Below are positions 1 through 37,676 of a stretch of DNA of 39,283 nt, piece after piece. The first letter of the stretch is position 1. Every line of letters begins with the position of its first letter. The notes beneath the pieces are model-generated. The model had not been told where the DNA came from and searched no databases. It was given only the letters and a program-made list of their open reading frames with translations. Source of the stretch: a virus (taxonomy: Duplodnaviria; Caudoviricetes); IMG/VR virus record IMGVR_UViG_3300030012_000948, positions 1-39,283 of that record, one strand, 5' to 3'. The position numbers and the translations under genes are program-made.

Positions 1-2
1 AA

Positions 3-530
3 TGGTATATGCCTTGTAAAAAACATAGTATGCAAAAATATAAATGTCCTGAAGGTTATGTAAAAGATTATGTAAAACACAAATGTGTTAAAAAAAAAGA
101 TAAGTATGCAGAAGTAGGTGAAAGAGGTGGTATTAAAAAATCACCTAAAGCACCTAAATCAAGCACACCAAATAAAAATCCTAAAGGAAAGGGAACTGCT
201 AAAGGAGATGCTTCTACAAGTAGAGGTGCTAAAGTAAGTAAAGCTGATGAAGCAACACTACAAAAGAAATCTGATGAATTTAATGAAAGGTATAAAGAAA
301 AGTTAGGTTATGGAGTTACTATTGGACAATTAAAAACTGTTTTTCAAAGAGGATTAGGTGCATTTAATGTATCACATTCACCAAGAGTAACCTCAGCAAA
401 ACAATGGGCATTAGCAAGAGTAAATGCTTATTTATACTTAGTTAAAAATGGTAGGCCACAAAATCCTAAATATGTAGGAGATTTTGATTTATTACCAAGC
501 AAACATCCTAAATCACCAAAAAATAAATAA
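3..530 (+). CDS. C-terminal part of the multidomain prohead protease gene (5'-truncated by the window edge)
   Basis: Translation nearly identical to the last ~170 aa of 30620..32227. The frame is open upstream of the ATG at 9 (tgg tat atg = WYM). Confidence 0.9.
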   Translation, partial: WYMPCKKHSMQKYKCPEGYVKDYVKHKCVKKKDKYAEVGERGGIKKSPKAPKSSTPNKNPKGKGTAKGDASTSRGAKVSKADEATLQKKSDEFNERYKEKLGYGVTIGQLKTVFQRGLGAFNVSHSPRVTSAKQWALARVNAYLYLVKNGRPQNPKYVGDFDLLPSKHPKSPKNK

Positions 531-531
531 T

Positions 532-684
532 ATGAAAAGTAAAAAATTTAAAACACCAAGTAATACATCACCTAAAAATACTAATAGAGGTTGTTTATGT
601 CCTGATGGTAAAAGATATAGTAGAAAGTGTTGTGATGGTTCACTACAAGCTCAAGGTATAGGTTCTATTACTGGTAGTAATTAA
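532..684 (+). CDS. Small basic Cys-rich protein (50 aa, CLCPDG...CCDG), possibly virion-associated
   Basis: ATG at 532 directly after the upstream stop; conserved at 32229..32381 with one amino acid change. Confidence 0.8.
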   Translation: MKSKKFKTPSNTSPKNTNRGCLCPDGKRYSRKCCDGSLQAQGIGSITGSN

Positions 685-712
685 AAAAGCCACTCTTTTG
701 AAGTGGCTCTTT
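683..712. terminator. Bidirectional intrinsic terminator
   Basis: AAAAA-AGCCACT-cttttga-AGTGGCT-CTTT between convergent genes; stem-loop identical at 32380..32411. Confidence 0.8.
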
Positions 713-731
713 AATTTTAGTTATTGGTTTT

Positions 732-944
732 TTATTTTAAATCTCCATTACTGTGCCAAAAAGTTTTATCTAATCTTTCTATTATCCATTTAAACCTTGT
801 ATTTTCATTTTCTTCTTCTTGCATATTTGCAAGCATAGGAGCTTCTTGCATTGCTTTTGTATTTGCTTTTATTTTATCCTCTAACATACTAATAAATAGT
901 AATGCTTCTTTTGATGTCATTGATACTTTTTTAAAATCTGTCAT
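732..944 (-). CDS. Accessory small protein in the minus-strand expression slot (70 aa, unknown function)
   Basis: Has its own promoter, the 20-nt conserved leader and a terminator; replaced by an unrelated ORF in copy B. Confidence 0.8.
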   Translation of the reverse strand: MTDFKKVSMTSKEALLFISMLEDKIKANTKAMQEAPMLANMQEEENENTRFKWIIERLDKTFWHSNGDLK

Positions 945-949
945 AATAT

Positions 950-969
950 TTGTTTTGGTTTTAATTAAT
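950..969 (-). repeat. Conserved 20-nt leader ATTAATTAAAACCAAAACAA, copy 1
   Basis: Exact copies at 22238..22257(+), 22412..22431(+) and 32626..32645(-), each at or just before an ATG. Confidence 0.9.
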
Positions 970-977
970 AATTTATG

Positions 978-1007
978 TAAATATAATTATAAATATTTAA
1001 TAAACAA
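978..1007 (-). promoter_or_regulatory. Host sigma-A-type early promoter overlapped by a TATAATTATA palindrome (982..991)
   Basis: Minus strand reads TTG-N19-TATATTTA, one mismatch from the Flavobacterium consensus TTG-N~19-TAnnTTTG. Confidence 0.65.
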
Positions 1008-1036
1008 GCATTTTATAAAAAAAATTTAAAAAAAAA

Positions 1037-1066
1037 TATAACAGTTAACGTTTTCAAACGTTTATA
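1037..1066 (+). promoter_or_regulatory. Putative phage late promoter (ECF-sigma type) for the head/tail-tube operon
   Basis: TATAAC-N16-CGTTTATA; same boxes and spacing at 19830, 22806 and 32714. Confidence 0.8.
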
Positions 1067-1082
1067 GATATATACTCAAATT

Positions 1083-1688
1083 ATGAAAGCAAACGAAATA
1101 CTAAACAAAATAAAAAATATTGTTGGTGAAAAAGTTGAACTTTCTGAAGAAAAAATAGAAATGGCTGAAATTACATTAGAGAATGGAACTGTATTGGTTG
1201 CAGAAAAGTTTGAAGCTGGAGAATCTATATTTATTAAAACTGAAGATGAGCAAATTGCTTTACCTGTTGGTGAATATGAATTAGAGGACAAAACAATTTT
1301 AGTTGTTACTGAAGAAGGTTTAATCGACAGTATTAAAGAAGCTGCTAAAGAAGCAGAGGAAGAAGAATTATCTGAAGAATCTAATGAAGAAGTAGAAACT
1401 GAATTAGAGGAAGAAGAAAAAGAAGAAATGGAATATGTTACCAAAGAAGAGTTTACTAAAGCAGTAGATGAAATTAAAGCAATGATTGAAAAAATGGGTA
1501 ACAAAGATAAAGAAGAAATGAAGGAAGAAGTAATAGAAGAGAAAGAAGAACTTTCTGCTGTTGCTCCTGAACCTGTAAAACATAATCCTGAAGCTGAAGT
1601 TGATAATAAAGTAAATTTTCATATTGGAAGCAATAGAATACAAACAACGAAAGACAGGGTTTTTGATAAAATTTTTAACAATAATTAA
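1083..1688 (+). CDS. Probable capsid scaffolding protein
   Basis: Very Glu-rich 201 aa protein directly upstream of the major capsid gene. Confidence 0.7.
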   Translation: MKANEILNKIKNIVGEKVELSEEKIEMAEITLENGTVLVAEKFEAGESIFIKTEDEQIALPVGEYELEDKTILVVTEEGLIDSIKEAAKEAEEEELSEESNEEVETELEEEEKEEMEYVTKEEFTKAVDEIKAMIEKMGNKDKEEMKEEVIEEKEELSAVAPEPVKHNPEAEVDNKVNFHIGSNRIQTTKDRVFDKIFNNN

Positions 1689-1699
1689 TATAAAATAAA

Positions 1700-2635
1700 A
1701 TGGCAACAACAACAAGTATAACAAGTACTTACGCTGGAGAATTTGCGGGTAAATATATTTCTGCTGCTCTTTTAAGTGCTAACACAATTGATAAAGGCGG
1801 TATAGAAGTAATGCCTAATATCAAGTATAAATCTACTATGAAAAAAGTAGCTACTGATGCTAATGTAATTAAAAATGCTTCATGTGATTTTGATGCAACT
1901 GCTACAGTAACATTAACTGAGAGATTATTACAACCGGAGGAGTTTCAAGTAAACATGCAATTCTGTAAGCAAGATTTCGTATCGGATTGGGAAGCGGCTG
2001 AAATGGGATTTTCTGCATTTGATAAAATGCCACCTAAATTTTCAGATTTCATTATTGGCCACGTAGCTGGTTTAGTAGCTGAAAAAACTGAACAAAACAT
2101 TTGGGAAGGTGTAAATGCTAATGCTGGTGAGTTTGATGGCTTAGTTACTTTAGCTTTAGCTGATTCTGATGTTATTGATGTAGCATCTCATGCTGCTGTA
2201 ACTGCTGCAAATGTAATTGATAAATTAGGTTCTATTGTTGATGCAGTACCTTCTGCACTTTACAATAAAGAAGATTTACACATTTACGTTTCACAAAACA
2301 TTGCAAGAGCTTATGTAAGAGCTTTAGGTGGATTTGCTTCAGGTATTGGTTCAAATGGTGTTAATGCACAAGGAACACAATGGTACAACGCTGGTGGACA
2401 ACTATCTTTTGATGGTGTAAAAATCTTCGTTGCTAATGGTTTAGCTGATGATACTGCAATGGCTGCTCAAAAATCTAACTTATACTTTGGTACTGGTTTA
2501 TTAAACGATATGAACGAAGTTAAAGTATTAGATATGGCTGACCTTGATGGTTCGCAGAATGTTAGAGTAATAATGCGATACACAAGCGCAGTTAACTACG
2601 GAATAGGTTCTGATATAGTTTTATACCACGCCTAA
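1700..2635 (+). CDS. Major capsid protein
   Basis: 311 aa, follows the scaffold, strongly biased codons, 'IWEG...FDGL' segment typical of HK97-fold capsids of Bacteroidota phages. Confidence 0.8.
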   Translation: MATTTSITSTYAGEFAGKYISAALLSANTIDKGGIEVMPNIKYKSTMKKVATDANVIKNASCDFDATATVTLTERLLQPEEFQVNMQFCKQDFVSDWEAAEMGFSAFDKMPPKFSDFIIGHVAGLVAEKTEQNIWEGVNANAGEFDGLVTLALADSDVIDVASHAAVTAANVIDKLGSIVDAVPSALYNKEDLHIYVSQNIARAYVRALGGFASGIGSNGVNAQGTQWYNAGGQLSFDGVKIFVANGLADDTAMAAQKSNLYFGTGLLNDMNEVKVLDMADLDGSQNVRVIMRYTSAVNYGIGSDIVLYHA

Positions 2636-2690
2636 GAATTAATTAATAACAAGGTGGCTGAAATGCTCCCTTAATTTAAAACAATAACAA

Positions 2691-3239
2691 ATGGCATGTG
2701 ATTTAACGGCTGGCAGAAAAGTACCATGTAAAGATGTAATTGGTGGTATTGTTAGAGCTTGGTTCATTGATTTTGGTGAATTAGGTACTGTAACAAAAAC
2801 TAATGATGAAATTACAGATATGACAGGTACAATAACTGCCTTACAATACGATTTAAAAGGTACTAATAGTTTAGAAACTGCTATTACCTCAAGTAGAGAG
2901 AATGGTACAACATTCTTTGAAGAAACATTAACTTTAACACTACCTAAATTATCTAAAGAAGATAATAAGGAACTTAAGCTGATTGCTTTTGGCCGTCCCC
3001 ACGTTTGTGTAGAAGATAGAAACGGAAACTTCTTTTTATGTGGATTAGAACACGGAATGGAAGTTACGGGCGGTAGTATAGCTACGGGAACAGCGTTTGG
3101 TGATTTAAGTGGATATACTTTAACATTAACAGGACAAGAATTAGAACCAGCTAATTTTATTGCTGGTGGTACTTCTGCTGACCCTCTGGCTGGTATGAGT
3201 TCAGCGACTGTGACAGTTACAGTGGGTACGAATAGTTAA
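2691..3239 (+). CDS. Probable major tail tube protein
   Basis: 182 aa Thr/Gly-rich predicted beta protein, co-transcribed with the capsid gene and followed by a strong terminator; 180/182 aa identical to copy B. Confidence 0.6.
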   Translation: MACDLTAGRKVPCKDVIGGIVRAWFIDFGELGTVTKTNDEITDMTGTITALQYDLKGTNSLETAITSSRENGTTFFEETLTLTLPKLSKEDNKELKLIAFGRPHVCVEDRNGNFFLCGLEHGMEVTGGSIATGTAFGDLSGYTLTLTGQELEPANFIAGGTSADPLAGMSSATVTVTVGTNS

Positions 3240-3244
3240 AAAAG

Positions 3245-3320
3245 ACGCGATTAATATAATTGTGTGATTCATAATATATAGTTTGATTGAGGGGTGGAAG
3301 TGATTAGCCACCCCTTTTTT
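3245..3320 (+). ncRNA. Putative 3'UTR-derived antisense sRNA 1 (hairpin - seed - terminator)
   Basis: Hairpin 3245..3265. Seed 3268..3284 is the exact reverse complement of 14001..14017 (exonuclease start region). Terminator 3289..3320. Conserved at 34946..35022. Confidence 0.65.
3289..3320 (+). terminator. Intrinsic terminator of the capsid/tail-tube operon
   Basis: GAGGGGTGG-loop-CCACCCCTT followed by a T run. Confidence 0.88.
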
Positions 3321-3330
3321 ATTTAAAAAT

Positions 3331-3684
3331 ATGCAAATATTAACTACAAGTGGCACACGAATTATTAACTTTATACCAAGAGAAACAATTACTGGTAGTA
3401 AGACCTATAAATTAGTGATAAAATCAGAAGCTCAAAATAAAGTTATATCAACAGATAATGATGCAACATTTTCTGAATTAGATTACTATTACCAATATTC
3501 AACTACACAAGCATTAATTGAGAATCAATACTATACTATTACAATCACTAACACAACAGATAACGCAATAATTTTTAAAGATAAAATGTATTGTTCAGAC
3601 CAAACACTTTCAGACTATGAAATTTCAAATGGTGTTTATATAGAACAAAGTACAGGAGATAACGAATTTATATATTATGGATAA
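3331..3684 (+). CDS. Hypothetical structural protein (117 aa)
   Basis: Overlaps the portal start; conserved in copy B. Confidence 0.6.
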   Translation: MQILTTSGTRIINFIPRETITGSKTYKLVIKSEAQNKVISTDNDATFSELDYYYQYSTTQALIENQYYTITITNTTDNAIIFKDKMYCSDQTLSDYEISNGVYIEQSTGDNEFIYYG

Positions 3685-5473
3685 TCTACACTTAATACAA
3701 TTAGGCCAATACGAAAGGCCAACAATCACAGAGGAACGTAATAAAGATTGGGTATCAATAGGCGATAACAATGATTATTATCAAAGTTTGATAGACGCCT
3801 ATATGGATAGCACAACAAACCAAGCAGTAATAAATGGTGTTGTTAATCAAATTTACGGAAAAGGATTAGATGCTACTGATTCAGCTGAAAAGCCAGACCA
3901 GTATGCACAAATGAAGAGTTTAGTAAAACCTCACGATTTAAGAAATGTTTGCCAAGATTTAAAGTTATTAGGAGAAGCTGCTTTTCAAATAACTTACAAT
4001 GGTAATAAAATATCAGCAATAACACATTTTCCAAGAGAAACTTTAAGAGCTGAAAAGATGAATGATAAAGGTGAAATAAAAAGCTATTTTTATTCTGCTG
4101 ATTGGAGTAAGGTTAATAGAAATACAAAACTAAAAAAGTTTCCTGTTTTTGGTAGTGGCGCACAAAATGAAATATTTATTATAAAAAGATACGTTACAGG
4201 TTTCTACTACTATTCACCAGCGGACTATAATATTTCGTATTCCATACTTGAAAACGAAGTTGCTTGTTATTTAATTAATGATACTCAGAATGGTTTTAGT
4301 GGTACAAAGGTTGTAAACTTTAACAATGGTGTGCCAGATAGAGAAAAGCAATTAGCTATTAAGAATGATGTAATGCAAAAACTTACTGGCAGCTATGGTG
4401 AAAAAGTAATTGTTGCATTTAACAATAATGCAGAAAGCAAAACAACTGTTGAGGATATACCACTAAATGATGCTCCAGCACATTATTCTTATTTAAGTGA
4501 AGAATGTAGTAGAAAGATTATGCTAACACATAGAGTTACTTCTCCATTACTTATTGGCTTAAGAGATGGTAATAATGGTTTAGGTAATAATGCAGATGAA
4601 ATACAAAATGCAAGCAGATTATTTAATAACGTAGTTATACAACCATACCAAAACCTTTTAATTGATAGCTTAGATACAATATTAGCAGTAAATGATATTA
4701 GTTTAAATCTATACTTTAAAACTATTGAGCCATTAGAATTTATGGAGTTAGATGATATTGATAATGCAGAAGTAGAAGAAGAACAAACAGGAATAAAAGA
4801 TGAAGAAACTGAATTAGAATTAATGGCTGCTAATGCTAAAAGAACTGCTTTAGATGAATTAATTGATTTAGGTATTGATGAAGAAGAACTATTAAAAGAT
4901 TATGAGATGGTTCACAGTGCTGAGGTTGATTATGATTTAGAAGAAGAACTTGATTTTGTAGTAACTGAAATAAATAAAACTTCTAAGAAAGAGTTTGCAA
5001 GTACAGGTAGTGCTAAACCATATAGAGATAGTAAACAAGATGGAATTTCTAAAAAGAAAACAGAAGAAGGTACTGAGTTTTTAGTTAGATATATGTATGA
5101 AGCAGCACCTAATCCAGCAAGTAGCTCAAGAACATTTTGTGATAAAATGATGGCTGCTAAAAAAGTATATAGAAAAGAAGATATTATTGAGATGGGTAAA
5201 AAACCTGTAAATGCTGGTTTTGGTAAAGGTGGTTCTGACACTTATTCAATCTGGCTCTACAAAGGCGGTGCAAGATGCAACCATAGATGGACAAGAAAAT
5301 TGTACGCAAGAAAAGGTGGTAGAAGTTTAGGCGAAGCAATATCAACTACACAAGCTATTAAAAGAGGTTTTAAACCCGAAACAAATGCAAAGAAAGTATC
5401 TATTGCACCAAAAAATATGAAGTATGCTGGCTATACTGCAGCTTATTGGAATGAAAAAGGATTTAAAAAATGA
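3677..5473 (+). CDS. Portal protein with acidic linker and C-terminal MuF-like (head morphogenesis) domain
   Basis: N-terminal ~355 aa portal-like (GKG motif, 'IMLTHRVTSPLLIG'). C-terminal SRTFC...KGGARCNHRW Cys/His motif resembles MuF domains. Confidence 0.75.
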   Translation: MDNLHLIQLGQYERPTITEERNKDWVSIGDNNDYYQSLIDAYMDSTTNQAVINGVVNQIYGKGLDATDSAEKPDQYAQMKSLVKPHDLRNVCQDLKLLGEAAFQITYNGNKISAITHFPRETLRAEKMNDKGEIKSYFYSADWSKVNRNTKLKKFPVFGSGAQNEIFIIKRYVTGFYYYSPADYNISYSILENEVACYLINDTQNGFSGTKVVNFNNGVPDREKQLAIKNDVMQKLTGSYGEKVIVAFNNNAESKTTVEDIPLNDAPAHYSYLSEECSRKIMLTHRVTSPLLIGLRDGNNGLGNNADEIQNASRLFNNVVIQPYQNLLIDSLDTILAVNDISLNLYFKTIEPLEFMELDDIDNAEVEEEQTGIKDEETELELMAANAKRTALDELIDLGIDEEELLKDYEMVHSAEVDYDLEEELDFVVTEINKTSKKEFASTGSAKPYRDSKQDGISKKKTEEGTEFLVRYMYEAAPNPASSSRTFCDKMMAAKKVYRKEDIIEMGKKPVNAGFGKGGSDTYSIWLYKGGARCNHRWTRKLYARKGGRSLGEAISTTQAIKRGFKPETNAKKVSIAPKNMKYAGYTAAYWNEKGFKK

Positions 5474-5973
5474 GTAAAGCACTATTTGTAACAAGACACG
5501 ATATTTCAGTATTTACTGCTGCTAATGGTAATATAGATAATGACAAACTGTTACCATTTATAAATCAAGCACAGGACATACATATACAAAATTACTTAGG
5601 TACTGAGCTTTATGTTAAAATACAAAATGATATAGTTGCTGGTACTTTAGCTAATCCTTATTTAGCATTGGTAAACGATTATATTAAAAATATGTTACTA
5701 CATTGGAGTATGGTGGAATACTTACCTTATGCTGGTGTTAATATTTCAAATGGTGGTATCTATACTAAGAATCCTGAAAATAGCACAGCATTAACAAAGG
5801 AACACGTAGATAGTTTAATTGAAAGAAGCAGAACAACAGCACAGTTTTACACTAACAGATTTATAGATTTTATGCAAAATAACGCAGCTGGATTAATACC
5901 TGAGTATTATAGTAATTCTCAAGAGGATATGTATCCAGATGATGTTGCAGATTTTGGTGGATGGGTACTTTAA
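5470..5973 (+). CDS. Probable head-tail adaptor/connector
   Basis: 167 aa predicted helical protein, coupled to the portal by an ATGA overlap; positional inference. Confidence 0.5.
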   Translation: MSKALFVTRHDISVFTAANGNIDNDKLLPFINQAQDIHIQNYLGTELYVKIQNDIVAGTLANPYLALVNDYIKNMLLHWSMVEYLPYAGVNISNGGIYTKNPENSTALTKEHVDSLIERSRTTAQFYTNRFIDFMQNNAAGLIPEYYSNSQEDMYPDDVADFGGWVL

Positions 5974-5982
5974 AAATATATT

Positions 5983-8040
5983 ATGCCAGATAATAACATA
6001 GAATGGGGACAAGGTGGTGTTAATAACACTAACGATTGGGGAAAAGCAAAAGCTAATTCTACCAATAATTTTGGTGCTGTTTATGATAGTTCACCAAGTG
6101 GTGATACTAATATTGCTGGTGGTGACCCTGTTGTATCAATAACTTATTCTGCAAGTGCTTTTTGTGCTGATGCTTCTGACCCTACACCAACAGTACAAAA
6201 CAACGCTGGTGCTGGCACATTTAGTTCTACATCTGGATTAGTATTTATTAGTACATCTACAGGACAAGTTGATATTTCTGCTTCAACTGCTGGTAGTTAT
6301 TTAATTACTTATACAGATACAGATTCAGCAACTGCTACATTTAACTTAACTATTAATGCTTTACCAACTGCTAATATTACAGGTACATTAAGTTTCTGCG
6401 CTGGTGATAGTACAATACTAACTGCTACAAGTGCAAGTTCTTACTTATGGTCTACAGGTGCAACAACGCAAGAACTAACCGTAACATCAGGTGGTTCATA
6501 TAGTGTTACTGTAACAGATTCTAATGGATGTAGTGCAACATCTTCAACTGTTACCGTTACAGAACATCCATTACCAACTGTTGAAATTACAGGTACATTA
6601 ACTTATTGTGTTGGTTCTAATACTACACTTACTGCAACTGCTGGTTTATCTTCTTACTTATGGTCAACAGGTGAAACAACACAATCTATAAATGTAACTG
6701 CTGGTAGTTATACAGTAACTGGTACAGATAGCAATGGTTGTAGTGCTACTTCTTCTGCTTCTACAGTAACAGAATTACCTTTAGATACTGCTACAGTAAC
6801 TTATAGTGCAAGTGCTTATTGTCAAATGCCTACTGGAGCAACTGCTGTAGATGGTTATTATCCACTATATTCTACAGAATCAGCAGCACAAGCAGAAAGC
6901 TCAGATGGAACAGCACACTCTCATGTATTAGGAGGTGTTACTTACTATATGCCTAATGATGGTGTAATTATATATCATGGTAGTTATTCACTTACAACAC
7001 CAGCACCAAGTATTACAGGTGAATCAGGTACATTTAGTGAATCTACTGGAAACTTATCTATAGATAGTTCAACAGGTGTTATCAATGTTAACACATCAAC
7101 TGCTGGAACATATACTGTTGTATATACTACAAGTGGAAGTTGTCCAAATACAGTAAATAATACTATTACAATAAATGCTTTAGATGGTGCTACATTTGGT
7201 TATTCTGCAAGTAGCTTACCACAAACAGGTACAGCAAGCTTAACAACTACACCAACTACTTCAGGTGGTACATATAGCGCATATCCGAGTGGTTTAAGTA
7301 TTAATTCTTCTACAGGTGAAATAGATTTAGCTGCTTCTACTATACAATCATATAAAATATTCTATGAAACAAGCGGTGCTGGGTGTCCTAATTCATCAAC
7401 ATTTGATTTAGCTGTAACTGCTGCTGGCATTTCAAATGTGTACAGTATGAGCTTTGATGGTTCAAATGATTATATAGATGCTGGTAGTGCATCTTATTTA
7501 AATAGTTTAAGTCAGTTTAGTATTTCAGTATGGTTTAATCTTACTACTGCTGCAAGTAATAAATGTATTGTTTCAGATTGGAATTATAACACAAGTCCTT
7601 TAGGTCATTTTGCATTACAAACGCAAGATGCTTCTGGCAGTAATTATGCTTTATTATTATTTATAAAAGCTACAAGTGATGCAGGTGTTAACAATGTTAA
7701 AACATCTGCTATATTAACTGAAAACACTTGGCATCATGCTGTATTCACTTATAACTCAGGTACAGTTACTTGTTATATTGATGGTTCTTCTGTTTCATTA
7801 ACAACAAACGGAACAATACCTACTAATTTGACTAATCAAGATGGTAATTTATTAATAGGTGATTTTGCTGGTTTAAATAGATTTTGGGGTGGTCAAATAG
7901 ACGAAGTAGGAATCTGGAATACAGCTCTAACATCTACACAAATAAGTGAGATATATAATGCAACAGGAACAAACACAACAAGTGACTTGTCAACTATTGA
8001 ATCAAGTAATTTGAAACTATGGTTAAGAATGGGCGACTAA
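5983..8040 (+). CDS. Adhesin-like fibre/decoration protein with Ig/PKD/SprB-like repeats and a C-terminal LamG (ConA-like) domain
   Basis: Repeats 'YLWSTG..T..I/L.V...Y.VT.TDSNGC' and 'GL.I.SSTG.ID'; LamG motifs 'FDGSNDYI...WHHAVFTY...YIDG...GQIDEVGIWN'. Confidence 0.8.
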   Translation: MPDNNIEWGQGGVNNTNDWGKAKANSTNNFGAVYDSSPSGDTNIAGGDPVVSITYSASAFCADASDPTPTVQNNAGAGTFSSTSGLVFISTSTGQVDISASTAGSYLITYTDTDSATATFNLTINALPTANITGTLSFCAGDSTILTATSASSYLWSTGATTQELTVTSGGSYSVTVTDSNGCSATSSTVTVTEHPLPTVEITGTLTYCVGSNTTLTATAGLSSYLWSTGETTQSINVTAGSYTVTGTDSNGCSATSSASTVTELPLDTATVTYSASAYCQMPTGATAVDGYYPLYSTESAAQAESSDGTAHSHVLGGVTYYMPNDGVIIYHGSYSLTTPAPSITGESGTFSESTGNLSIDSSTGVINVNTSTAGTYTVVYTTSGSCPNTVNNTITINALDGATFGYSASSLPQTGTASLTTTPTTSGGTYSAYPSGLSINSSTGEIDLAASTIQSYKIFYETSGAGCPNSSTFDLAVTAAGISNVYSMSFDGSNDYIDAGSASYLNSLSQFSISVWFNLTTAASNKCIVSDWNYNTSPLGHFALQTQDASGSNYALLLFIKATSDAGVNNVKTSAILTENTWHHAVFTYNSGTVTCYIDGSSVSLTTNGTIPTNLTNQDGNLLIGDFAGLNRFWGGQIDEVGIWNTALTSTQISEIYNATGTNTTSDLSTIESSNLKLWLRMGD

Positions 8041-13020: not shown

Positions 13021-13051
13021 TTGTTTTGTATTATAATTATATATATATTTA
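13021..13051 (+). promoter_or_regulatory. Host sigma-A-type early promoter of the recombination/replication operon, with TATAATTATA palindrome (13032..13041)
   Basis: TTG-N20-TATATTTA; shares TTTGTATTATAATTATA with 22205..22221. Confidence 0.65.
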
Positions 13052-13074
13052 CACAAATATTAAAAAATTATATT

Positions 13075-13230
13075 ATGTCAAGAACAATAAATTATACAAC
13101 AAGAACTTTTTATGTACCAGCAAATAAAATGGATACATTAGTTCAATTTCAAAATAAATGCAAAGAGAATGGACACAAATCTTATTCTGAAGTATTATTA
13201 AAACTAATGGAACAATACAACGAATTATGA
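13075..13230 (+). CDS. Putative ribbon-helix-helix (Arc/CopG-like) regulator, 51 aa
   Basis: MSRTINYTTRTFYVP (strand), MDTLVQFQNKCKENG (helix), SYSEVLLKLMEQY (helix); first gene of the early operon. Confidence 0.6.
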   Translation: MSRTINYTTRTFYVPANKMDTLVQFQNKCKENGHKSYSEVLLKLMEQYNEL

Positions 13231-13908: not shown

Positions 13909-13997
13909 TAGAAACAAACGCAATTGAAGTAATGCAGTTAGTTTTACTATGTATTACTTTAGGTTTAGTAATTGGAACTATAATCAAAAAGAAATAA
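13905..13997 (+). CDS. 30-aa single-TM peptide
   Basis: MIETNAIEVMQLVLLCITLGLVIGTIIKKK; ATGA overlap with the upstream gene. Confidence 0.6.
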   Translation: MIETNAIEVMQLVLLCITLGLVIGTIIKKK

Positions 13998-14012
13998 TTT
14001 AAACTATATATT

Positions 14013-14741
14013 ATGAAAAAGAATCACTTAAGTTATTCAGCATTAAGTCAATTTAAAAAATCTCCTAACCATTTATTAGCATACTGGAACAAAGAATTAA
14101 AAACTACTGATGCTATGCAGTTTGGAAGTTTAATCCACAAAATGTTATTAGAACCAGAATCTTTTTATTATGATTTTGCTGTTTTTGGCGGGGCAAGAAG
14201 AGCTGGTAGACAATGGTTAGAATTTAAAGAAGAAAACGAAGGTAAAACACTAATTAAACAACAAGAATTAGATGATGCAAATAGAATAATTAACAATGCT
14301 ATGTTACATCCAGTACTTACTGAAATGATGCAAAATAAAATAGAATCTGAAGTTAAATTAGAATGGCAACACAAAGATGTTAAATTTAAGGGTTTTGCAG
14401 ACCTTTTAACAACGTTTAATGGTAGAAAATGTGTTGTTGATATTAAAACAACTAATGATGCTGGTAGAAGATTTGAAAGAGATTTATACTATAATGATTA
14501 TAAAATGCAGTTGGCAATGTATCAAGACCAATACGATAAAGATACAGATGCTTATATTGTAGCAATAGAAACTACAACACCATTTAATGTTCAGATATAT
14601 AAATTAGATGATAGTTTATTATTTAAAGGTTGGATGGATTATGATTTTTATACAGATAAGTTTAAAGAATGGGATGGTAGTCCTCAAGGTTACACTAATG
14701 ATATAGTAGAAGTAAAAACAGAAGTGGAGGAAATAGTATGA
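14013..14741 (+). CDS. PD-(D/E)XK exonuclease, RecE/ExoVIII (DUF3799)-like
   Basis: LSYSAL, FGSLIH, KGFAD, VDIKTT and YKMQLAMY motifs. Confidence 0.85.
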   Translation: MKKNHLSYSALSQFKKSPNHLLAYWNKELKTTDAMQFGSLIHKMLLEPESFYYDFAVFGGARRAGRQWLEFKEENEGKTLIKQQELDDANRIINNAMLHPVLTEMMQNKIESEVKLEWQHKDVKFKGFADLLTTFNGRKCVVDIKTTNDAGRRFERDLYYNDYKMQLAMYQDQYDKDTDAYIVAIETTTPFNVQIYKLDDSLLFKGWMDYDFYTDKFKEWDGSPQGYTNDIVEVKTEVEEIV

Positions 14742-16043: not shown

Positions 16044-16695
16044 TAAAGTACATAATGTAGATTGTTTAAACTATATAAATACAATACCTGACAACTTTAT
16101 TGATTTAGTAATAGTTGACCCGCCATACGGAGATAACTCTGGTTATGGTAGAAAAAACAAAACTATATTAAACAATGAAAGCGAAGAAATAAATTATAAG
16201 TTTTTAAAAGTTATATATAATAAAATGAAAAACGACACCAGCTTATATTTATTTACTAATCATAAATTTGCTTTTCAACTAAAAAACTTTGCATTAGAAA
16301 ATAAGTTTAATTATCGTATGCTTTGTATAATGGTAAAGAATAATATAGGTATGGGTTATGGTTTTAGAAATCAATACGAGTTGTGCTTAGTGTTGGAAAA
16401 AGGTAAAGCAAAATACAACCTTAATAATTTTAGCAATGTTTGGAAAATGAAGCACGTTAATCACGATGATAATTCACATCCACATCAAAAAGAATATGAT
16501 ATTATAAGAAAAATCATATTACACTCAAGTGCGGAAAATGATATTGTGTTTGATGGTTTTATGGGAAGCTTTTCTACAGCAATAGCATCTTATAAAGAAA
16601 AAAGAAACTTTATTGGTTGTGAATTAGATGCTAAATGGTATAAATTAGGACAAAAAAAACTAAATCAAATTATGAATCAAACAACATTATTTTAA
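16033..16695 (+). CDS. DNA methyltransferase 1 (N6A/N4C, beta class)
   Basis: VDPPY before HPHQK and VFDGFMGS...FIGCELD. Confidence 0.9.
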   Translation: MNINKVHNVDCLNYINTIPDNFIDLVIVDPPYGDNSGYGRKNKTILNNESEEINYKFLKVIYNKMKNDTSLYLFTNHKFAFQLKNFALENKFNYRMLCIMVKNNIGMGYGFRNQYELCLVLEKGKAKYNLNNFSNVWKMKHVNHDDNSHPHQKEYDIIRKIILHSSAENDIVFDGFMGSFSTAIASYKEKRNFIGCELDAKWYKLGQKKLNQIMNQTTLF

Positions 16696-16697
16696 TT

Positions 16698-17081
16698 ATG
16701 AAAGAATTACCATATTTTAAATTTTATCCTAATCAATGGATAACAGGCAGTATATCATTTATGGATTTAGATGTTCAAGGTGCATTTATGAAAGTTTGTT
16801 GCTACTACTGGAGCAAAGAATGTAATGTAACAAGAAAACAAATTAAAACATTAATACCTAAACAATGGAGTACTTTAGTAGATGCTGAGTTATTTAAGAT
16901 AGAAGAAGAAACTATTAGCATTAAATGGTTAGATGAACAATACCAGCAAAGATTAGTAGAACACAAGCGAAATGTTAGCAACGGAAAGAAGGGGGGCTTA
17001 AGCAGGGCTAAAGCATTAAGAAAAGATAAGATAAGAAAAGATAATAAAGACCCTTATTTAACTACAACATTTATAAAATGA
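16698..17081 (+). CDS. Short replication initiator (YdaU/DUF1376-like N-terminal domain)
   Basis: 'LPYFKFYPNQW...GAFM...NGKKGG' pattern, coupled to the helicase, with internal repeats. Confidence 0.7.
   Translation: MKELPYFKFYPNQWITGSISFMDLDVQGAFMKVCCYYWSKECNVTRKQIKTLIPKQWSTLVDAELFKIEEETISIKWLDEQYQQRLVEHKRNVSNGKKGGLSRAKALRKDKIRKDNKDPYLTTTFIK
16996..17044 (+). repeat. Candidate replication origin inside the initiator gene
   Basis: GCTTAAGC-N7-AAGCATT followed by purine-rich AAGAT/AAGAA repeats; near-duplicate at 22111..22154. Confidence 0.5.
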
Positions 17082-19322: not shown

Positions 19323-19669
19323 GTTTAAATGCAATTCAAAAAGGTAAAAGATTTGAGCTAAAAATAGCCAAAGATTTAGCAAAGAAGTTTGAAACTAATA
19401 TTAGAAGAACACCAAACAGCGGTGGTTTAAGTATTAAAGGAGATATAATGACAACAAGCGGAATACTATCTGAGTATAGCTGGGAGTGTAAGAACCAAGA
19501 GAAATTAAATATCTGGAAAGCATTAGAACAAAGTGAAGGAGATGCAAGAGGAACATTAAAAACACCATTAGTTGTATTTACCAAGAACTTTGAAAAAGAT
19601 TATGTTGCATTAAAATATGATGACTTTGTTAATTTACTTCTTGAATTAAATGAGTACAGAAGTAGATAA
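19319..19669 (+). CDS. Holliday junction resolvase-like PD-(D/E)XK nuclease
   Basis: KGKRFE, SGG...GDI, ECKNQE and PLVVF motifs. Confidence 0.75.
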   Translation: MSLNAIQKGKRFELKIAKDLAKKFETNIRRTPNSGGLSIKGDIMTTSGILSEYSWECKNQEKLNIWKALEQSEGDARGTLKTPLVVFTKNFEKDYVALKYDDFVNLLLELNEYRSR

Positions 19670-20159
19670 TATACTACATATTCTAATAAGAGATGAGAAA
19701 ACTTGGCTTAACATGGCTGAGGAAATAAGCAGCAGTAGTAAAGTACCAGCAAAAGATTTACTACATGATTTTTATATTGCTTTACATAGTAAAATTGATA
19801 GTGGTAAAGTAAAAATTAATGACATCCTGTATAACGATTCTTTAAATAAAGCGTTTATATATAAGATGATGTACAATATATTTATTGATAACATAAGAAA
19901 CGACAGGGACATATTAATAGATAAAGAACTTAAAAACATTATAGAAGCAGACAACGAACCATATATTGATATTGAAAAAGTAGTTGATGAAATAGTAGAT
20001 GGCTTTTATTGGTTTGATAGAAAGTTATTTAATTTATATAGAAAGAAATTCCATAGCATAAGAAAACTATCAGCAGCAACTAATATATCACACGTAGTTG
20101 TATGGAGAACTATAAATAATTGTATTAAAGAGATTAAAAAAAAAATTAATGAAAAGTAA
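19650..20159 (+). CDS. Phage ECF-like RNA polymerase sigma factor
   Basis: Region-2-like 'AKDLLHDFYIAL...AFIYKMMYNIFIDNIR' and region-4 HTH 'SIRKLSAATNISHVVVWRTINN'; 169 aa. Confidence 0.75.
   Translation: MSTEVDNILHILIRDEKTWLNMAEEISSSSKVPAKDLLHDFYIALHSKIDSGKVKINDILYNDSLNKAFIYKMMYNIFIDNIRNDRDILIDKELKNIIEADNEPYIDIEKVVDEIVDGFYWFDRKLFNLYRKKFHSIRKLSAATNISHVVVWRTINNCIKEIKKKINEK
19830..19859 (+). promoter_or_regulatory. Putative late promoter embedded in the sigma gene, upstream of the terminase operon
   Basis: TATAAC-gattctttaaataaag(16)-CGTTTATA. Confidence 0.7.
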
Positions 20160-22197: not shown

Positions 22198-22231
22198 TTT
22201 GTAATTTGTATTATAATTATACTTATATTTG
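22198..22231 (+). promoter_or_regulatory. Host sigma-A promoter of the plus-strand accessory slot, with TATAATTATA palindrome (22212..22221)
   Basis: Perfect TATATTTG (-7 box) at 22224..22231, TTTG upstream, and an A-tract UP-like region. Confidence 0.75.
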
Positions 22232-22237
22232 ATTATT

Positions 22238-22257
22238 ATTAATTAAAACCAAAACAA
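22238..22257 (+). repeat. Conserved 20-nt leader, copy 2
   Basis: ATTAATTAAAACCAAAACAA, with the last A being the A of ATG. Confidence 0.9.
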
Positions 22258-22412
22258 TGATTATAGAAACAATGTTAAAATTAGAAAGAGAAAGATACTC
22301 AAGAAAGTTTTTAAATAAACATTTTAATAAAATGACAAAAAAACAAAAAGAACAAGCTATGAAAATACTTGTTGATTTTCAAAAATTTAAAGATAGAGAA
22401 TTAGCATTGTAA
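22257..22412 (+). CDS. Accessory small basic protein (51 aa)
   Basis: MIIETMLKLERERYSRKFLNKHFNKMTKKQKEQAMKILVDFQKFKDRELAL; lies exactly between two leader copies. Confidence 0.75.
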   Translation: MIIETMLKLERERYSRKFLNKHFNKMTKKQKEQAMKILVDFQKFKDRELAL

Positions 22413-22431
22413 TTAATTAAAACCAAAACAA
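22412..22431 (+). repeat. Conserved 20-nt leader, copy 3
   Basis: Exact copy starting in the upstream stop codon. Confidence 0.9.
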
Positions 22432-22432
22432 A

Positions 22433-22805: not shown

Positions 22806-22835
22806 TATAACGATTCAACAATTAAAACGTTTATA
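22806..22835 (+). promoter_or_regulatory. Putative late promoter of the tail operon (near-leaderless mRNA)
   Basis: TATAAC-gattcaacaattaaaa(16)-CGTTTATA, ending 5 nt before ATG 22841. Confidence 0.78.
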
Positions 22836-30619: not shown

Positions 30620-32227
30620 ATGGATATAATAGAATTAATATTAGATGAAGAAAATGAAGAGATGGTTGGAATAGATGCGGTTAGTATCGTAGAGAATCCA
30701 GCTATTGAATCAGATTTTATTGCATTAGCAAGTGATGAAATACAACTTGCAAAAATAGATGAAGAGAAAAAACTTCTTCTTGGTGCAGCACTTATACCAA
30801 ACAAGCCAATATTTAGAAAGCGTAATGATACTATGTTTTATGTTTACTTTTCAAAAGATACAGTAAGAAGAGCAAGTGAATTGTTTTTTCAAAACAGTAA
30901 TCAAAACAACGCAACCTTAGAACACCAAATGAGTGTTAATGGTTTAACTGTTGTAGAATCTTGGATAGTAGAAGATACTAAAATGGATAAATCTGCTAAG
31001 TATGGTTTAGAAATGCCTGAGGGTACTTGGATGATTTCTATGAAAGTGGAGAATAATGAAGTTTGGACTGATTATGTTAAAACTGGTAAAGTAAAGGGTT
31101 TCTCAATTGAAGGATTTTTTTCTGACCGAGCAAAAATTAAAAAACCTGATACAAAAGCAGAGATGGCAGCTATTGAAGAAGAGGAAGCTGAATATATGCT
31201 TAGTAATATTAAGGCACTAATTAAGAAAGATGGTAGAACTAAATCTGGCAAAAAGATAACATTAGAAACTTATAATGATTATCCACAAGCAGTAAGTAAT
31301 AATGCTAAAAGAGGTATTGAACTAAATGAAAAAGTTAATAATAAATGTGCAACACAAGTTGGTAAAATAAGAGCGCAACAATTAGCACAAAAAGAAAACA
31401 TTAGTTTACAAACTTTAAAAAGGATGTACAGTTATTTAAGTAGAGCGCAAGAATATTATGATGAAGGAGATACAAAAGCGTGTGGTACAATTAGTTATTT
31501 ACTATGGGGTGGTAAAGCTGGCCTTAGATGGAGTGAAAGCAAGTTAAAAGAACTTGGTGAAATTAATTTAGCTTCTATGGTGGTTGATGATAACTTTGCA
31601 ATAATAGATGATAGATTAGCTTATAAAACTCAAGAGAAAGCTGAGGAGATGGCTAAAAATATAGGTTGTGAAGGTTTTCACGTTCACGAATTTGAGGGTA
31701 AAGAGTGGTATATGCCTTGTGAAAAACATAGTTTGCAAGAATACAAATGCCCAGAAGGATTTGTAAAAAAAGATGGTAGATGCGTTAAAAAAAAAAGTAG
31801 CTATGCAGAAGTAGGAGAAAGAGGTGGAGTTAAGAAATCACCTAAAGCACCAGCATCTGGAACACCAAATAAAAATCCTAAAGGAAAAGGTACTGCTAAA
31901 GGAGATGCCTCAACAAGTAGAGGAGCTAAAGTAAGTAAAGCAGATGAAGCAACACTACAAAAGAAATCTGATGAATTTAACGAAAGATATAAAGAAAAGT
32001 TAGGATATGGAGTTACTATTGGACAATTAAAAACAGTTTTTCAACGTGGATTAGGTGCATTTAATGTATCACATTCACCAAGAGTAACCTCAGCTAAACA
32101 ATGGGCATTAGCAAGAGTAAATGCTTATTTATATCTTGTAAAAAATGGTAGGCCACAAAATCCTAAATATGTAGGAGATTTTGATTTGCTACCAAGTAAA
32201 CATCCTAAATCACCAAAAAATAAATAA
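30620..32227 (+). CDS. Prohead serine protease (XkdF-like) fused to several accessory domains
   Basis: 'AVSIVENPAIE...TLEH...VESW...GTW...GKVKGFSIEG' protease domain followed by ~350 aa of extra modules. Confidence 0.78.
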   Translation: MDIIELILDEENEEMVGIDAVSIVENPAIESDFIALASDEIQLAKIDEEKKLLLGAALIPNKPIFRKRNDTMFYVYFSKDTVRRASELFFQNSNQNNATLEHQMSVNGLTVVESWIVEDTKMDKSAKYGLEMPEGTWMISMKVENNEVWTDYVKTGKVKGFSIEGFFSDRAKIKKPDTKAEMAAIEEEEAEYMLSNIKALIKKDGRTKSGKKITLETYNDYPQAVSNNAKRGIELNEKVNNKCATQVGKIRAQQLAQKENISLQTLKRMYSYLSRAQEYYDEGDTKACGTISYLLWGGKAGLRWSESKLKELGEINLASMVVDDNFAIIDDRLAYKTQEKAEEMAKNIGCEGFHVHEFEGKEWYMPCEKHSLQEYKCPEGFVKKDGRCVKKKSSYAEVGERGGVKKSPKAPASGTPNKNPKGKGTAKGDASTSRGAKVSKADEATLQKKSDEFNERYKEKLGYGVTIGQLKTVFQRGLGAFNVSHSPRVTSAKQWALARVNAYLYLVKNGRPQNPKYVGDFDLLPSKHPKSPKNK

Positions 32228-32228
32228 T

Positions 32229-32381
32229 ATGAAAAGTAAAAAATTTGTAACACCAAGTAATACATCACCTAAAAACACTAATAGAGGTTGTTTGTGTCCT
32301 GATGGTAAAAGATATAGTAGAAAATGTTGTGATGGCTCATTACAAGCTCAAGGTATAGGTTCTATTACTGGCAGTAATTAA
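32229..32381 (+). CDS. Small basic Cys-rich protein, copy B
   Basis: Homologue of 532..684. Confidence 0.8.
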   Translation: MKSKKFVTPSNTSPKNTNRGCLCPDGKRYSRKCCDGSLQAQGIGSITGSN

Positions 32382-32411
32382 AAAAAGCCACTCTTTTGAA
32401 GTGGCTCTTTT
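32380..32411. terminator. Bidirectional terminator, copy B
   Basis: Same stem-loop as 683..712. Confidence 0.8.
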
Positions 32412-32430
32412 ATTTTAGTTTTTTAGGTAT

Positions 32431-32625
32431 TTATTTAAAATCATAAATACTTTGGAGATAATCAATTACACTATAATACATAGTATCTAAAAAAGTAGTT
32501 TTTTCGTTGTGTTTCCAATTACCATCTTTTTGTATAACTGTAAAATCTATATAAGTTCTATTACATCCTATAGATGTATTTTTGTTAATTTTGATGTAGT
32601 TTCCGTTTTTTAATTCAAGTATCAT
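32431..32625 (-). CDS. Accessory small protein in the minus-strand slot, copy B (64 aa, unrelated to 732..944)
   Basis: Same promoter, leader and terminator; different ORF. Confidence 0.8.
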   Translation of the reverse strand: MILELKNGNYIKINKNTSIGCNRTYIDFTVIQKDGNWKHNEKTTFLDTMYYSVIDYLQSIYDFK

Positions 32626-32645
32626 TTGTTTTGGTTTTAATTAAT
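32626..32645 (-). repeat. Conserved 20-nt leader, copy 4
   Basis: Exact copy abutting the ATG. Confidence 0.9.
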
Positions 32646-32713
32646 AATTTATGTAAATATAATTATAATTATTTAATAAACAAGCATTTTATAAAAAAAA
32701 AATTAAAAAAAAA

Positions 32714-32743
32714 TATAACAGTAAAGGTTTTCAAACGTTTATA
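32714..32743 (+). promoter_or_regulatory. Putative late promoter, copy B
   Basis: TATAAC-N16-CGTTTATA; differs from 1037..1066 only in the spacer. Confidence 0.8.
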
Positions 32744-32759
32744 GGTATATACTCAAATT

Positions 32760-33380
32760 ATGAAAGCAAACGAAATACTAAACAAAATAAAAAATATTGT
32801 TGGTGAAAAAGTTGAACTTTCTGAAGAAAAAATAGAAATGGCTGAAATCACATTAGAAAATGGTACTGTACTTGTTGCAGAATCTTTTGAAGCTGGAAAA
32901 TCTGTATTTATTAAAACTGAAGATGAAGAAATTGCTCTTCCTGTTGGTGAATATAAATTAGAAGAAGGCAAAGTTTTAGTTGTAACTGAAGAAGGTTTAA
33001 TTGACAGTATTAAAGAAGCTGCTGAAGAAGCAGTTGAAGAAGAAGAATTATCTGAAGAATCTAATGAAGAAGTAGAAACTGAATTAGAGGAAGAAGAAAA
33101 AGAAGAAATGGAATATGTTACCAAAGAAGAATTCAAATCTGCTGTTGAAGAAATAAAAGCAATGATTGAAAAAATGGGTAACAAAGATAAAGAAGAAATG
33201 AAGGAAGAAGTAATAGAAGAAGTTAAAGAAGAAAAAGAAGAACTTTCTGCTGTTGCTCCTGAACCTGTAAAACATAATCCTGAAGCTGAAGTTGATAATA
33301 AAGTGAATTTTCATATTGCAAGCAATAGAACACAAACAACTAAAGACAGGGTTTTTGATAAAATTTTTAACAATAATTAA
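32760..33380 (+). CDS. Scaffolding protein, copy B
   Basis: Homologue of 1083..1688. Confidence 0.7.
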   Translation: MKANEILNKIKNIVGEKVELSEEKIEMAEITLENGTVLVAESFEAGKSVFIKTEDEEIALPVGEYKLEEGKVLVVTEEGLIDSIKEAAEEAVEEEELSEESNEEVETELEEEEKEEMEYVTKEEFKSAVEEIKAMIEKMGNKDKEEMKEEVIEEVKEEKEELSAVAPEPVKHNPEAEVDNKVNFHIASNRTQTTKDRVFDKIFNNN

Positions 33381-33391
33381 TATAAAATAAA

Positions 33392-34336
33392 ATGGCGAAT
33401 AGTTTAAATACACCAATTACAAGTACTTATGCTGGTGAGTTTGCTGGGAAATATATCTCTGCTGCTCTTTTAAGTGCTAACACAATTGATAAAGGCGGAA
33501 TAGAAGTAATGCCTAATATCAAGTACAAGTCTACAATGAAGAAAGTAGCAACTGCATCATCTATTATAGGTAATGCTGCTTGTGATTTTTCTGGAACTGC
33601 AGACCAAGTTACATTAACTGAAAGATTATTACAACCAGAGGAGTTTCAAGTAAACCTTGAGTTCTGTAAGCAAGATTTCCAATCGGATTGGGAAGCTGCT
33701 CAAATGGGATATTCTGCATTTGATAAAATGCCACCTAAATTTTCAGATTTCATTATTGGCCACGTAGCTGGTTTAGTAGCTGAAAAAACTGAGCAAAACA
33801 TTTGGGAAGGTGTTAATGCAAACGCTGGAGAATTTGATGGTTTAGTAACTTTAGCTTTAGCTGATGCTGATGTAGTAGATGTAGCATCTCACGCTGCTGT
33901 AACTGCTGCTAACGTAATTGACAAATTAGGTTCTATTGTTGATGCAATACCTTCTGCTCTTTACAATAAAGAAGATTTACACATTTACGTATCACAAAAC
34001 ATTGCAAGAGCTTATGTAAGAGCTTTAGGTGGTTTTGCTACTTCAATTGGTGCTGCTGGTACTGATTCAAAAGGAACACAATGGTACAACGCTGGTGGAC
34101 AACTATCTTTTGATGGTGTGAAAATCTTTGTTGCTAATGGTTTAGCTGATGATACTGCAATGGCTGCACAAAAATCTAACTTATACTTTGGAACTGGTTT
34201 ATTATCAGATATGAACGAAGTTAAAGTATTAGATATGGCTGACCTTGATGGTTCACAAAATGTCAGAGTAATAATGAGATTTACTTCTGGTGTACAATAC
34301 GGAATAGGTTCTGATATAGTTTTATACCACGCCTAA
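33392..34336 (+). CDS. Major capsid protein, copy B
   Basis: Homologue of 1700..2635. Confidence 0.8.
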   Translation: MANSLNTPITSTYAGEFAGKYISAALLSANTIDKGGIEVMPNIKYKSTMKKVATASSIIGNAACDFSGTADQVTLTERLLQPEEFQVNLEFCKQDFQSDWEAAQMGYSAFDKMPPKFSDFIIGHVAGLVAEKTEQNIWEGVNANAGEFDGLVTLALADADVVDVASHAAVTAANVIDKLGSIVDAIPSALYNKEDLHIYVSQNIARAYVRALGGFATSIGAAGTDSKGTQWYNAGGQLSFDGVKIFVANGLADDTAMAAQKSNLYFGTGLLSDMNEVKVLDMADLDGSQNVRVIMRFTSGVQYGIGSDIVLYHA

Positions 34337-34390
34337 GAATTAATTAATAACAAGGGGGTGTGATTCCCCCTTTATTTAAATTTTAATAAT

Positions 34391-34939
34391 ATGGCTTGCG
34401 ATTTAACAGCTGGTAGAAAAGTACCTTGTAAAGATGTAATTGGTGGTATTGTTAGAGCTTGGTTCATTGATTTTGGTGAATTAGGAACTGTAACAAAAAC
34501 CAATGATGAAATTACAGATATGACAGGTACAATAACTGCCTTACAATATGATTTAAAAGGAACAAATAGTTTGGAAACTGCTATTACATCCTCAAGAGAG
34601 AATGGCACAACATTCTTTGAAGAAACATTAACTTTAACACTACCTAAATTATCTAAAGAAGATAATAAGGAACTTAAGCTGATGGCTTTTGGACGTCCCC
34701 ACGTTTGTGTAGAAGATAGAAACGGAAACTTCTTTTTATGTGGCTTAGAACACGGAATGGAAGTTACTGGTGGAAGTATAGCTACGGGAACAGCTTTTGG
34801 GGATTTAAGCGGTTACTCACTAACATTAACTGGTCAAGAATTAGAACCAGCTAATTTTATTGCTGGTGGTACTTCTGCTGACCCTCTTGCGGGAATGAGT
34901 TCAGCGACTGTAACAGTTACTGTAGGTACAAATAGTTAA
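34391..34939 (+). CDS. Probable major tail tube protein, copy B
   Basis: Homologue of 2691..3239. Confidence 0.6.
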   Translation: MACDLTAGRKVPCKDVIGGIVRAWFIDFGELGTVTKTNDEITDMTGTITALQYDLKGTNSLETAITSSRENGTTFFEETLTLTLPKLSKEDNKELKLMAFGRPHVCVEDRNGNFFLCGLEHGMEVTGGSIATGTAFGDLSGYSLTLTGQELEPANFIAGGTSADPLAGMSSATVTVTVGTNS

Positions 34940-34945
34940 AAAAAT

Positions 34946-35022
34946 ACGCAGTTAAATATAATTGTGTGATTCATAATATATAGTTTGATTGAGGGGTGGA
35001 AGTGATTAGCCACCCCTTTTTT
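34946..35022 (+). ncRNA. Putative antisense sRNA 1, copy B
   Basis: Seed (34970..34986) and terminator identical to copy A; hairpin changes preserve pairing. Confidence 0.65.
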
Positions 35023-35033
35023 ATTAAAAAAAT

Positions 35034-37667: not shown

Positions 37668-37676
37668 AAATATATT

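Follow-up and report, generated by a model that had tools for sequence, protein, structure and literature searches.

The 3′ tail of a phage capsid-tube messenger as a candidate antisense RNA against early-gene start codons

Introduction

Why would the 3′ end of a structural transcript in a tailed phage carry the exact complement of the start-codon region of a gene that lies on the same strand, 10.7 kb away? This question is raised by a locus in the virus record IMGVR_UViG_3300030012_000948 (Caudoviricetes), of which we analysed the whole stretch of 39,283 nucleotides, called the window here. How small phages without known regulators shut down their early genes late in infection is largely open; T4 uses proteins. 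Our comparison of the locus with its relatives leads us to favour, on balance, a reading in which the 3′ tail of the capsid-tube operon would act as a multi-target antisense RNA that damps translation of early genes late in infection.

Results

The phage, its family and its probable host

The window contains a phage genome of ~31.7 kb, after which 7.6 kb repeat its start in a variant form with ~90% identity. This second part (31700-39283, a variant of 1-7600) is probably due to a chimeric assembly of two population members. Portal, tape-measure, terminase and primase/helicase genes were annotated, together with a weak sigma-factor match. The element under study follows a gene for a 182-aa virion protein (Table 1), the AlphaFold model of which is mostly beta (pLDDT 77). 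A Foldseek search with this model gave no match at E<=0.001, and the weak matches were mostly to tail-tube, Hcp and neck folds. The tube family comprises 4187 protein homologues and, by our estimate, ~7500 IMG/VR stretches, and the long seed described below was seen in a part of it only. Since the sole cultured relatives of the tube gene are the Nonlabens phages P12024S and L (38-39% identity for P12024), the host is probably a marine flavobacterium, a relative of Flavobacterium that does not use Shine-Dalgarno sequences. The tail of P12024S itself consists of a short U-rich spacer without anti-AUG, and small minus-strand genes are inserted in this phage after the tube terminator and after portal (L349, 2750-2980 and 5123-5365).

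Table 1. Coordinates of the element, its predicted targets and associated features in the window.
Feature	Position	Strand	Basis or remark
Hairpin P1, 9 bp	3245..3265	+	RNAfold; 3′ arm overlaps seed start
Seed, reverse complement of start-codon region	3262..3289	+	Perfect core 3268-3284
Intrinsic-terminator-like hairpin and U tract	3290..3320	+	RNAfold z -4.35; predicted 3′ end of capsid-tube transcript
Copy B of the element, in variant repeat	34946..35021	+	Sequence comparison, fold
Tube gene, 182-aa virion protein, likely tail tube	2691..3239	+	ORF; element starts just past stop codon
Exonuclease gene, RecE-like	14013-14741	+	PHROG exonuclease VIII, E 7e-41; Pfam DUF3799/PDDEXK
Exonuclease start region, main predicted target in the window	13997..14027	+	Complementarity, duplex energy, accessibility, family ranking
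MKELPY gene, weakly primosomal/replication-initiator-like	16698-17081	+	PHROG primosomal protein, E 0.003
MKELPY leader, second predicted target across lineages	16668..16717	+	Weak in the window, -13.8 kcal/mol
Portal gene start, ranked second among sites in the window and possibly a minor or cis target	3660..3686	+	11-nt exact match
Late-promoter-like motif before scaffold-capsid-tube operon	1040..1066	+	Motif scan; putative function
Early-promoter-like cassette heading the run with exonuclease and MKELPY genes	13025..13050	+	Putative function

Architecture of the element

The original prediction described a 9-bp hairpin (3245-3265), an open seed and a terminator after the seed, all of which were reproduced by RNAfold. 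The terminator was missed by a simple terminator scan, which accepts only loops of 3-8 nt. In copy B the seed is the same (34970-34986), two stem changes preserve pairing and the indel falls within the loop, as had been stated. The claim that the seed is unpaired holds for the minimum-energy fold of the window and fails for that of copy B, which buries part of the seed, although the centroid fold of copy B retains the hairpin. Because copy B belongs to the ~90% identical variant of the first 7.6 kb, it counts as one further relative and not as an independent test. Over 43 homologues, the mean unpaired probability of the seed is 0.53, reaching at least 0.6 in 10 of them, and opening the core costs 2.5 kcal/mol in the window.

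P1 forms with at least 5 consecutive pairs in 42 of the 43 distinct homologues when anchored in each sequence; its changes are mostly one-sided, of the G-U/A-U kind, because the 3′ arm is invariant. In the terminator, both sides have changed in 6 of 7 pairs, according to an alignment of the 43 distinct elements in which the rows of lineage C are out of register. A scan of the window with Rfam 15, C4 included, placed no family on the element and gave only two matches with E ~0.9, at 679-765. A reading of the seed as a dif-like site or promoter was rejected by eye, against the consensus sequences that we took for such sites, as indels in lineages B, D and F fall in the spacer that would have to be fixed.

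Pairing with the exonuclease start in the window

The core at 3268-3284 is indeed the exact reverse complement of 14001-14017, which spans the ATG at 14013. Duplex folding also recovers the extra GTGA pairing past a 6-nt loop-out that had been proposed (-23.2 kcal/mol); the first two bases of this extension sit within the hairpin stem. Among exact inverted matches in the unit, the 17-nt one is the third longest, and inverted matches of at least 17 nt arose in 12.5-20% of shuffles (40 local shuffles in each of four settings). The bare match is thus not significant genome-wide, and support from relatives is therefore needed. When opening costs are included, the exonuclease start ranks first among start regions of the window (-12.1 kcal/mol), ahead of portal (-7.1) and of the gene that precedes the exonuclease (-4.6), and net pairing amounts to about -12 to -14 kcal/mol. 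In a small control, five other terminator spacers reached just 7-10 nt.

Inverted matches longer than 17 nt (21-23 nt) link 950-972, upstream of the minus-strand ORF 944-732, with 22235-22257 and 22412-22432. These were rejected as candidate antisense RNAs, being repeated early leaders on opposite strands. Early promoter/leader cassettes recur at 944-732 (minus), 950-1000, 13025-13075, 22205-22257 and 22412-22432, and the single copy on the minus strand is the source of the 21-23 nt inverted matches.

Seed conservation among close relatives

The portal protein led us to 80 loci, 68 of which cover the tube-gene end, near-duplicates included. The 13-nt 5′ core of the seed is kept in all 68 of these tails; 55 have the exact 17-mer, 11 a one-base deletion (lineage B) and 2 are otherwise different. 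Just upstream, third codon positions at the end of the tube gene share 59% identity with the window. Scanning IMG/VR with an 18-mer yielded 115 loci, 110 of them with a tube match. The seed identity of 0.97 in the 43-element set is inflated, its rows having been chosen by seed pattern. The exonuclease leaders are more variable. Among 77 close ones, 4 pair perfectly over 21 nt, 16 over 21 nt with one G-U and 23 over 17 nt, so that 43 retain at least 17 pairs; 26 retain only a core of 11-12 nt and 8 are of other kinds. A test for covariation between seed and exonuclease leader had been suggested. Within lineage A the leader varies under a fixed seed, whereas between lineages covariation is found (see below).

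None of the phage targets is as conserved as the seed, which lineage C retains in the absence of a long phage match. Both observations would suit host mRNAs as the main targets, with the phage matches a by-product of similar start regions. In a search limited to near-exact matches, the exact 18-mer occurred at 3 places in a GTDB collection, all unrelated, and the 15-mer in 10 of 401 Flavobacteriales genomes vs 4 for the control, with no recurring gene. Moreover, covariation with phage leaders is unexpected under host targeting, which we consider quite improbable.

On gene trees, the seed class requires 4 changes, the lowest number possible, for the exonuclease, p117, MKELPY and terminase, 5 for capsid and portal, and 6 for tube and helicase. 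On these counts, the tree test shows that the seed follows the genome backbone better than the tube gene; it is no proof that the seed co-evolved with any single gene. Where the tube gene was swapped, the element remained with the backbone, as a boundary sequence would. Together with the shuffles above, this is what one would expect if the element served mRNA stability or processing, or marked a recombination boundary, and its complementarity had arisen by chance in AT-rich DNA. Chance does not readily explain why each of the distinct seeds A, E, F and G should suit the lineage that carries it, nor the short matches of the other terminator spacers, and we regard this explanation, too, as having little probability. 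The final codons of the tube gene run into the anti-start unit in lineage F. Several loci (L413-L449, L219 and L242) carry a relic of the last tube codons behind a new stop, which forms the 5′ arm of P1 and is a trace of a tube-gene replacement that spared the element.

Covariation of seeds and leaders between lineages

In more distant phages, this position is occupied by other seeds. We compared five seed classes with lineage-mean duplex energies over all 120 assignments. The true assignment ranks 1/120 for exonuclease leaders and also 1/120 for MKELPY leaders, a rank that is not a clean probability because lineage D consists of 2 genomes and lineage E of 1 and the lineages are related. It remains 1/24 when any lineage is dropped, including A, where the match was first noticed. 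Among the 24 gene families present in all five lineages, the exonuclease comes first (residual -15.8), MKELPY second (rank 2/120 on this smaller set) and portal third (rank 3/120), while capsid, tube, scaffold, amidase and p117 rank 85-101; a genome-wide composition effect is therefore not the cause.

The seed of lineage E has lost its AT-rich middle, and the exonuclease start of E has the matching shorter form. The two are exactly complementary over 15 nt, with wobble pairs that extend into the codons, whereas A seeds reach only about -6 kcal/mol on the E start. Of the two units in lineage F, one matches the exonuclease start over 14 nt in G443, G446 and G449 and the MKELPY start over 13-14 nt in four genomes; the other matches the exonuclease start over 11-13 nt in G444, G445 and G452. 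At its 3′ end the seed has C-specific and D-specific forms, each of which fits MKELPY leaders of the lineage concerned. When all genes are considered, the starts that pair best with seeds A, F and G are those of the respective lineage, which is not so for seeds C, D and E. In A and F, the leader 8-mers with the strongest lineage enrichment fall inside the seed complement, as does one of the top four in G. Among the starts of a genome, that of the exonuclease ranks highest in 10 of the 13 A genomes (with one mis-called start) and in the single E genome, and that of MKELPY in 2 of 4 C genomes, the one D genome and 3 of 8 F genomes.

The third family, portal, would be reached in cis if the seed folded back on its start ~400 nt downstream in read-through transcripts and thereby limited portal synthesis. 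Portal is the second site of the window as well, pairs with -24 to -26 kcal/mol in some relatives, and seed-bearing lineages seem, by eye, to have no promoter-like stretch after the terminator. Its leaders vary under a fixed seed (lineage A, -15 to -26 kcal/mol; lineages F and G, -7 to -10) and double as the coding end of the upstream gene, and we take this to be the least probable of the readings considered here. By eye, the terminator runs directly into the next ATG in long-seed lineages, and a promoter-like stretch fills this interval in most other relatives (L276-L348). Expression of the portal operon may depend on read-through.

Mock seeds and the inverted-start explanation

Real start regions of other lineages were used as mock seeds. 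The observed match length was reached by 4 of 999 for the window (17 nt), 6 of 1010 for G030 and 26 of 1608 for lineage E (15 nt); the result was modest for lineage F (45-136 of ~1370), and C, D and G005 were not significant by length. Starts of the same genome, when used as mock seeds, reached the observed match in 1/45, 5/49, 4/50 and 0/50 cases. Own-genome starts thus resemble each other almost as closely as the seed resembles them, and covariation would also follow if the seed were a lineage-typical start copied in inverted orientation.

This is the main rival to an antisense role: the seed would be an inverted member of the start family with a non-pairing function, for instance as a protein-binding DNA site or as a ribosome-loading site of an antisense transcript. 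The seed complement does look like a good start region, own-genome starts match each other at comparable lengths, and the start-associated sequences (SAS) of Cluster K mycobacteriophages have single opposite-strand copies (main text of PMC3203893). We nevertheless judge it unlikely. The minus-strand frame from the seed ATG ranges from 5 to 54 codons and is interrupted by loop indels, so that there is no conserved peptide; a small antisense protein gene was rejected on the same grounds, non-conservation of the frame and frame-breaking indels. No minus-strand promoter was seen behind the terminator, by eye or in a scan of the sigma-70 type only. Furthermore, the complementarity extends into target codons with G-U pairs and bulges, and the seed lies between two covarying RNA hairpins.

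A different seed in temperate relatives

Lineage G has a different invariant seed beside a varying terminator, located after the tube gene in 35 of 36 matches; the search itself fixed 20 seed bases. An exonuclease target had been expected, and an exonuclease match was absent from all ten lineage G records searched, two of them complete. The lineage carries an integrase and a divergent CI-like regulator and is hence temperate. These genes, with an excisionase-like gene, are found in L529 (511-1812) and L530 (14310-15318; G493), and the family clustering contains an integrase-like family, labelled by eye, with members in five genomes. The top start site in both complete G genomes is that of the CI-like repressor, paired over 28 bp with bulges at -24.6 and -24.9 kcal/mol, and none of 120 mock seeds reached the duplex energy of G492. 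The third G genome with a repressor gave a weaker pairing (-17.3 kcal/mol, rank 4). A 7-mer complementary to the 3′ end of the G seed occurs on 5-6 of 40-50 leaders per genome, nearly all of them of early or middle genes.

Lineages that do not fit an exonuclease-only target

The original prediction named the exonuclease as the one target, whose repression could protect DNA ends during packaging. As a predicted target, the exonuclease stood: it shows the strongest covariation among families and is the top site of the window, with the 43 well-paired leaders and the 15-nt match of lineage E pointing the same way. The one-target picture failed. Lineage C has nearly the same seed as A, and its exonuclease start offers only 5-9 matching bases; among 138 starts in four partial C genomes, none has an 11-nt match. 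In G502, one of the two D genomes, the exonuclease start likewise pairs poorly, with only 5 matching bases, and lineage G keeps a seed with no exonuclease match in the records searched. MKELPY covaries too. We therefore rate an exonuclease-specific antisense RNA as unlikely, at about the level of the inverted-start explanation.

Further exceptions were seen. The lineage B deletion is uncompensated in two linked exonuclease leaders (L123, L617), and three further leaders, outside the set linked to B genomes, fit the B seed perfectly. In lineage K (L570, L657) the hairpin persists together with the 3′ portion of the seed, but the anti-AUG has been lost; it is also missing from the second unit of F. 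Short spacers with TTCATTT at 14 more distant loci gave no clear own-start match (matching context in 8/242 vs 10/635 starts). These 14 anti-AUG-word spacers follow the tube stop in L285, L287-L290, L295, L298-L300, L303, L308, L311, L316 and L345. Overall, the predicted seed is complementary to the initiation regions of its putative targets and covaries with them, with exceptions in lineages B, C and K.

Transcription signals around the element and its targets

The late-promoter-like motif has exact copies at 1040, 19833, 22809 and 32717, and 6 matches at no more than one mismatch compare with 1.0 expected; no copy lies within the tube gene. The motif is bipartite (1040-1066, 19833-19859, 22809-22835, 32717-32743), and one copy is inside the sigma-factor-like gene 19650-20159. 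The early cassette, whose promoter likeness was judged by what we take to be the Bacteroidetes promoter consensus, has a second copy at 22205, compared with 0.01 expected by chance. A scan found no terminator-like site on the + strand between this cassette and 22677. RNA contigs stop at 3246 and 3249 without a loose end in two studies and read through the terminator in two others; they come from relatives ~86-89% identical, such contigs break where variants share sequence, and no weight was given to them.

Discussion

A transcript started at the late-promoter-like site 1040 would stop at 3320 and provide an abundant RNA, acting either as whole mRNA or as a processed fragment of ~75 nt. Its seed would pair across the AUG and the A-rich upstream bases that serve Flavobacteria in place of a Shine-Dalgarno sequence. 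In F. johnsoniae, initiation proceeds without Shine-Dalgarno pairing and is favoured by adenines at -3, -6, -12 and -13 and by low structure (cited part of PMC6847099). The predicted duplex spans -12 to +5 and hence -3 and -12, and it would mask the A-rich initiation region. As a result, less recombination nuclease, less replication-initiator-like protein and, in lineage G, less CI-like repressor would be made, shifting the phage from replication and recombination to packaging and, in G, holding the lytic state. The AU-rich duplexes and a seed that is only about half unpaired count against such a role.

A more far-reaching version, possible and put forward more tentatively, is that the switch from early to late is the capsid-tube messenger itself. 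The 3′ tail would be a retunable anti-start-codon guide, matched in each lineage of a very large marine phage family to its own early leaders and directed against the nuclease and the replication initiator in lytic lineages and the repressor in a temperate one, in hosts that do not read Shine-Dalgarno sequences. If true, the tail of a structural mRNA would tie early shut-off directly to the amount of capsid message, and antisense control would be seen to operate where ribosomes ignore Shine-Dalgarno sequences. The natural seed-target pairs of A, E, F and G are ready-made swaps.

A literature search, largely of open-access papers, found no description of the element. By analogy, its mode appears to resemble that of Sar, OOP, C4 and 3′UTR-derived sRNAs, and it belongs to no Rfam family and is not cis-encoded. 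Sar and OOP are encoded opposite their targets. In the cited part of a review, Sar of P22 blocks initiation of ant translation; OOP of lambda, which has a promoter of its own, reduces cII and promotes lysis, and a table lists OOP as cis and Sar as trans (PMC12197685). Like these, the tail would be a phage RNA that pairs with phage mRNA; unlike them, each of which is described there with one lysis-lysogeny gene, it ends a structural operon and has several predicted targets, 10 kb away. A cis-encoded antisense RNA of the OOP type also differs in that seed and target are here on the same strand, 10.7 kb apart. C4 of P1/P7 is an antisense RNA needed for full icd-ant repression (cited part of PMC8198154). 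It is described there as lying within the operon under its control and supporting lysogeny, in both of which the tail differs, and the tail has no Rfam match.

Cluster K mycobacteriophages have a repeated start-codon motif at non-structural genes, and its RNA or protein partner is left open; their SAS are a 13-mer of fixed sequence around a Shine-Dalgarno core, and ‘antisense’ is absent from the main text (PMC3203893). Compared with SAS as described in that text, the leader motifs here are AT-rich, looser and lineage-specific, and their complement resides in a structured mRNA tail. In T4, RegA and RegB shut down early genes post-transcriptionally at initiation regions, and RegA sites are AU-rich, often with the AUG (cited part of PMC3014915). 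The effect is similar, and as far as that account goes the agents there are proteins, whereas the predicted agent here is an RNA.

Bacterial 3′UTR-derived sRNAs carry a conserved seed ahead of the intrinsic terminator at the 3′ end of an mRNA. The tail shares this seed-terminator layout, and the predicted hairpin, U tract and compensatory pairs point to an intrinsic terminator common to tail and mRNA; unlike those sRNAs, the tail would act in a host, probably related to Flavobacterium, that makes no use of Shine-Dalgarno sequences, and its predicted targets are the phage's own genes.
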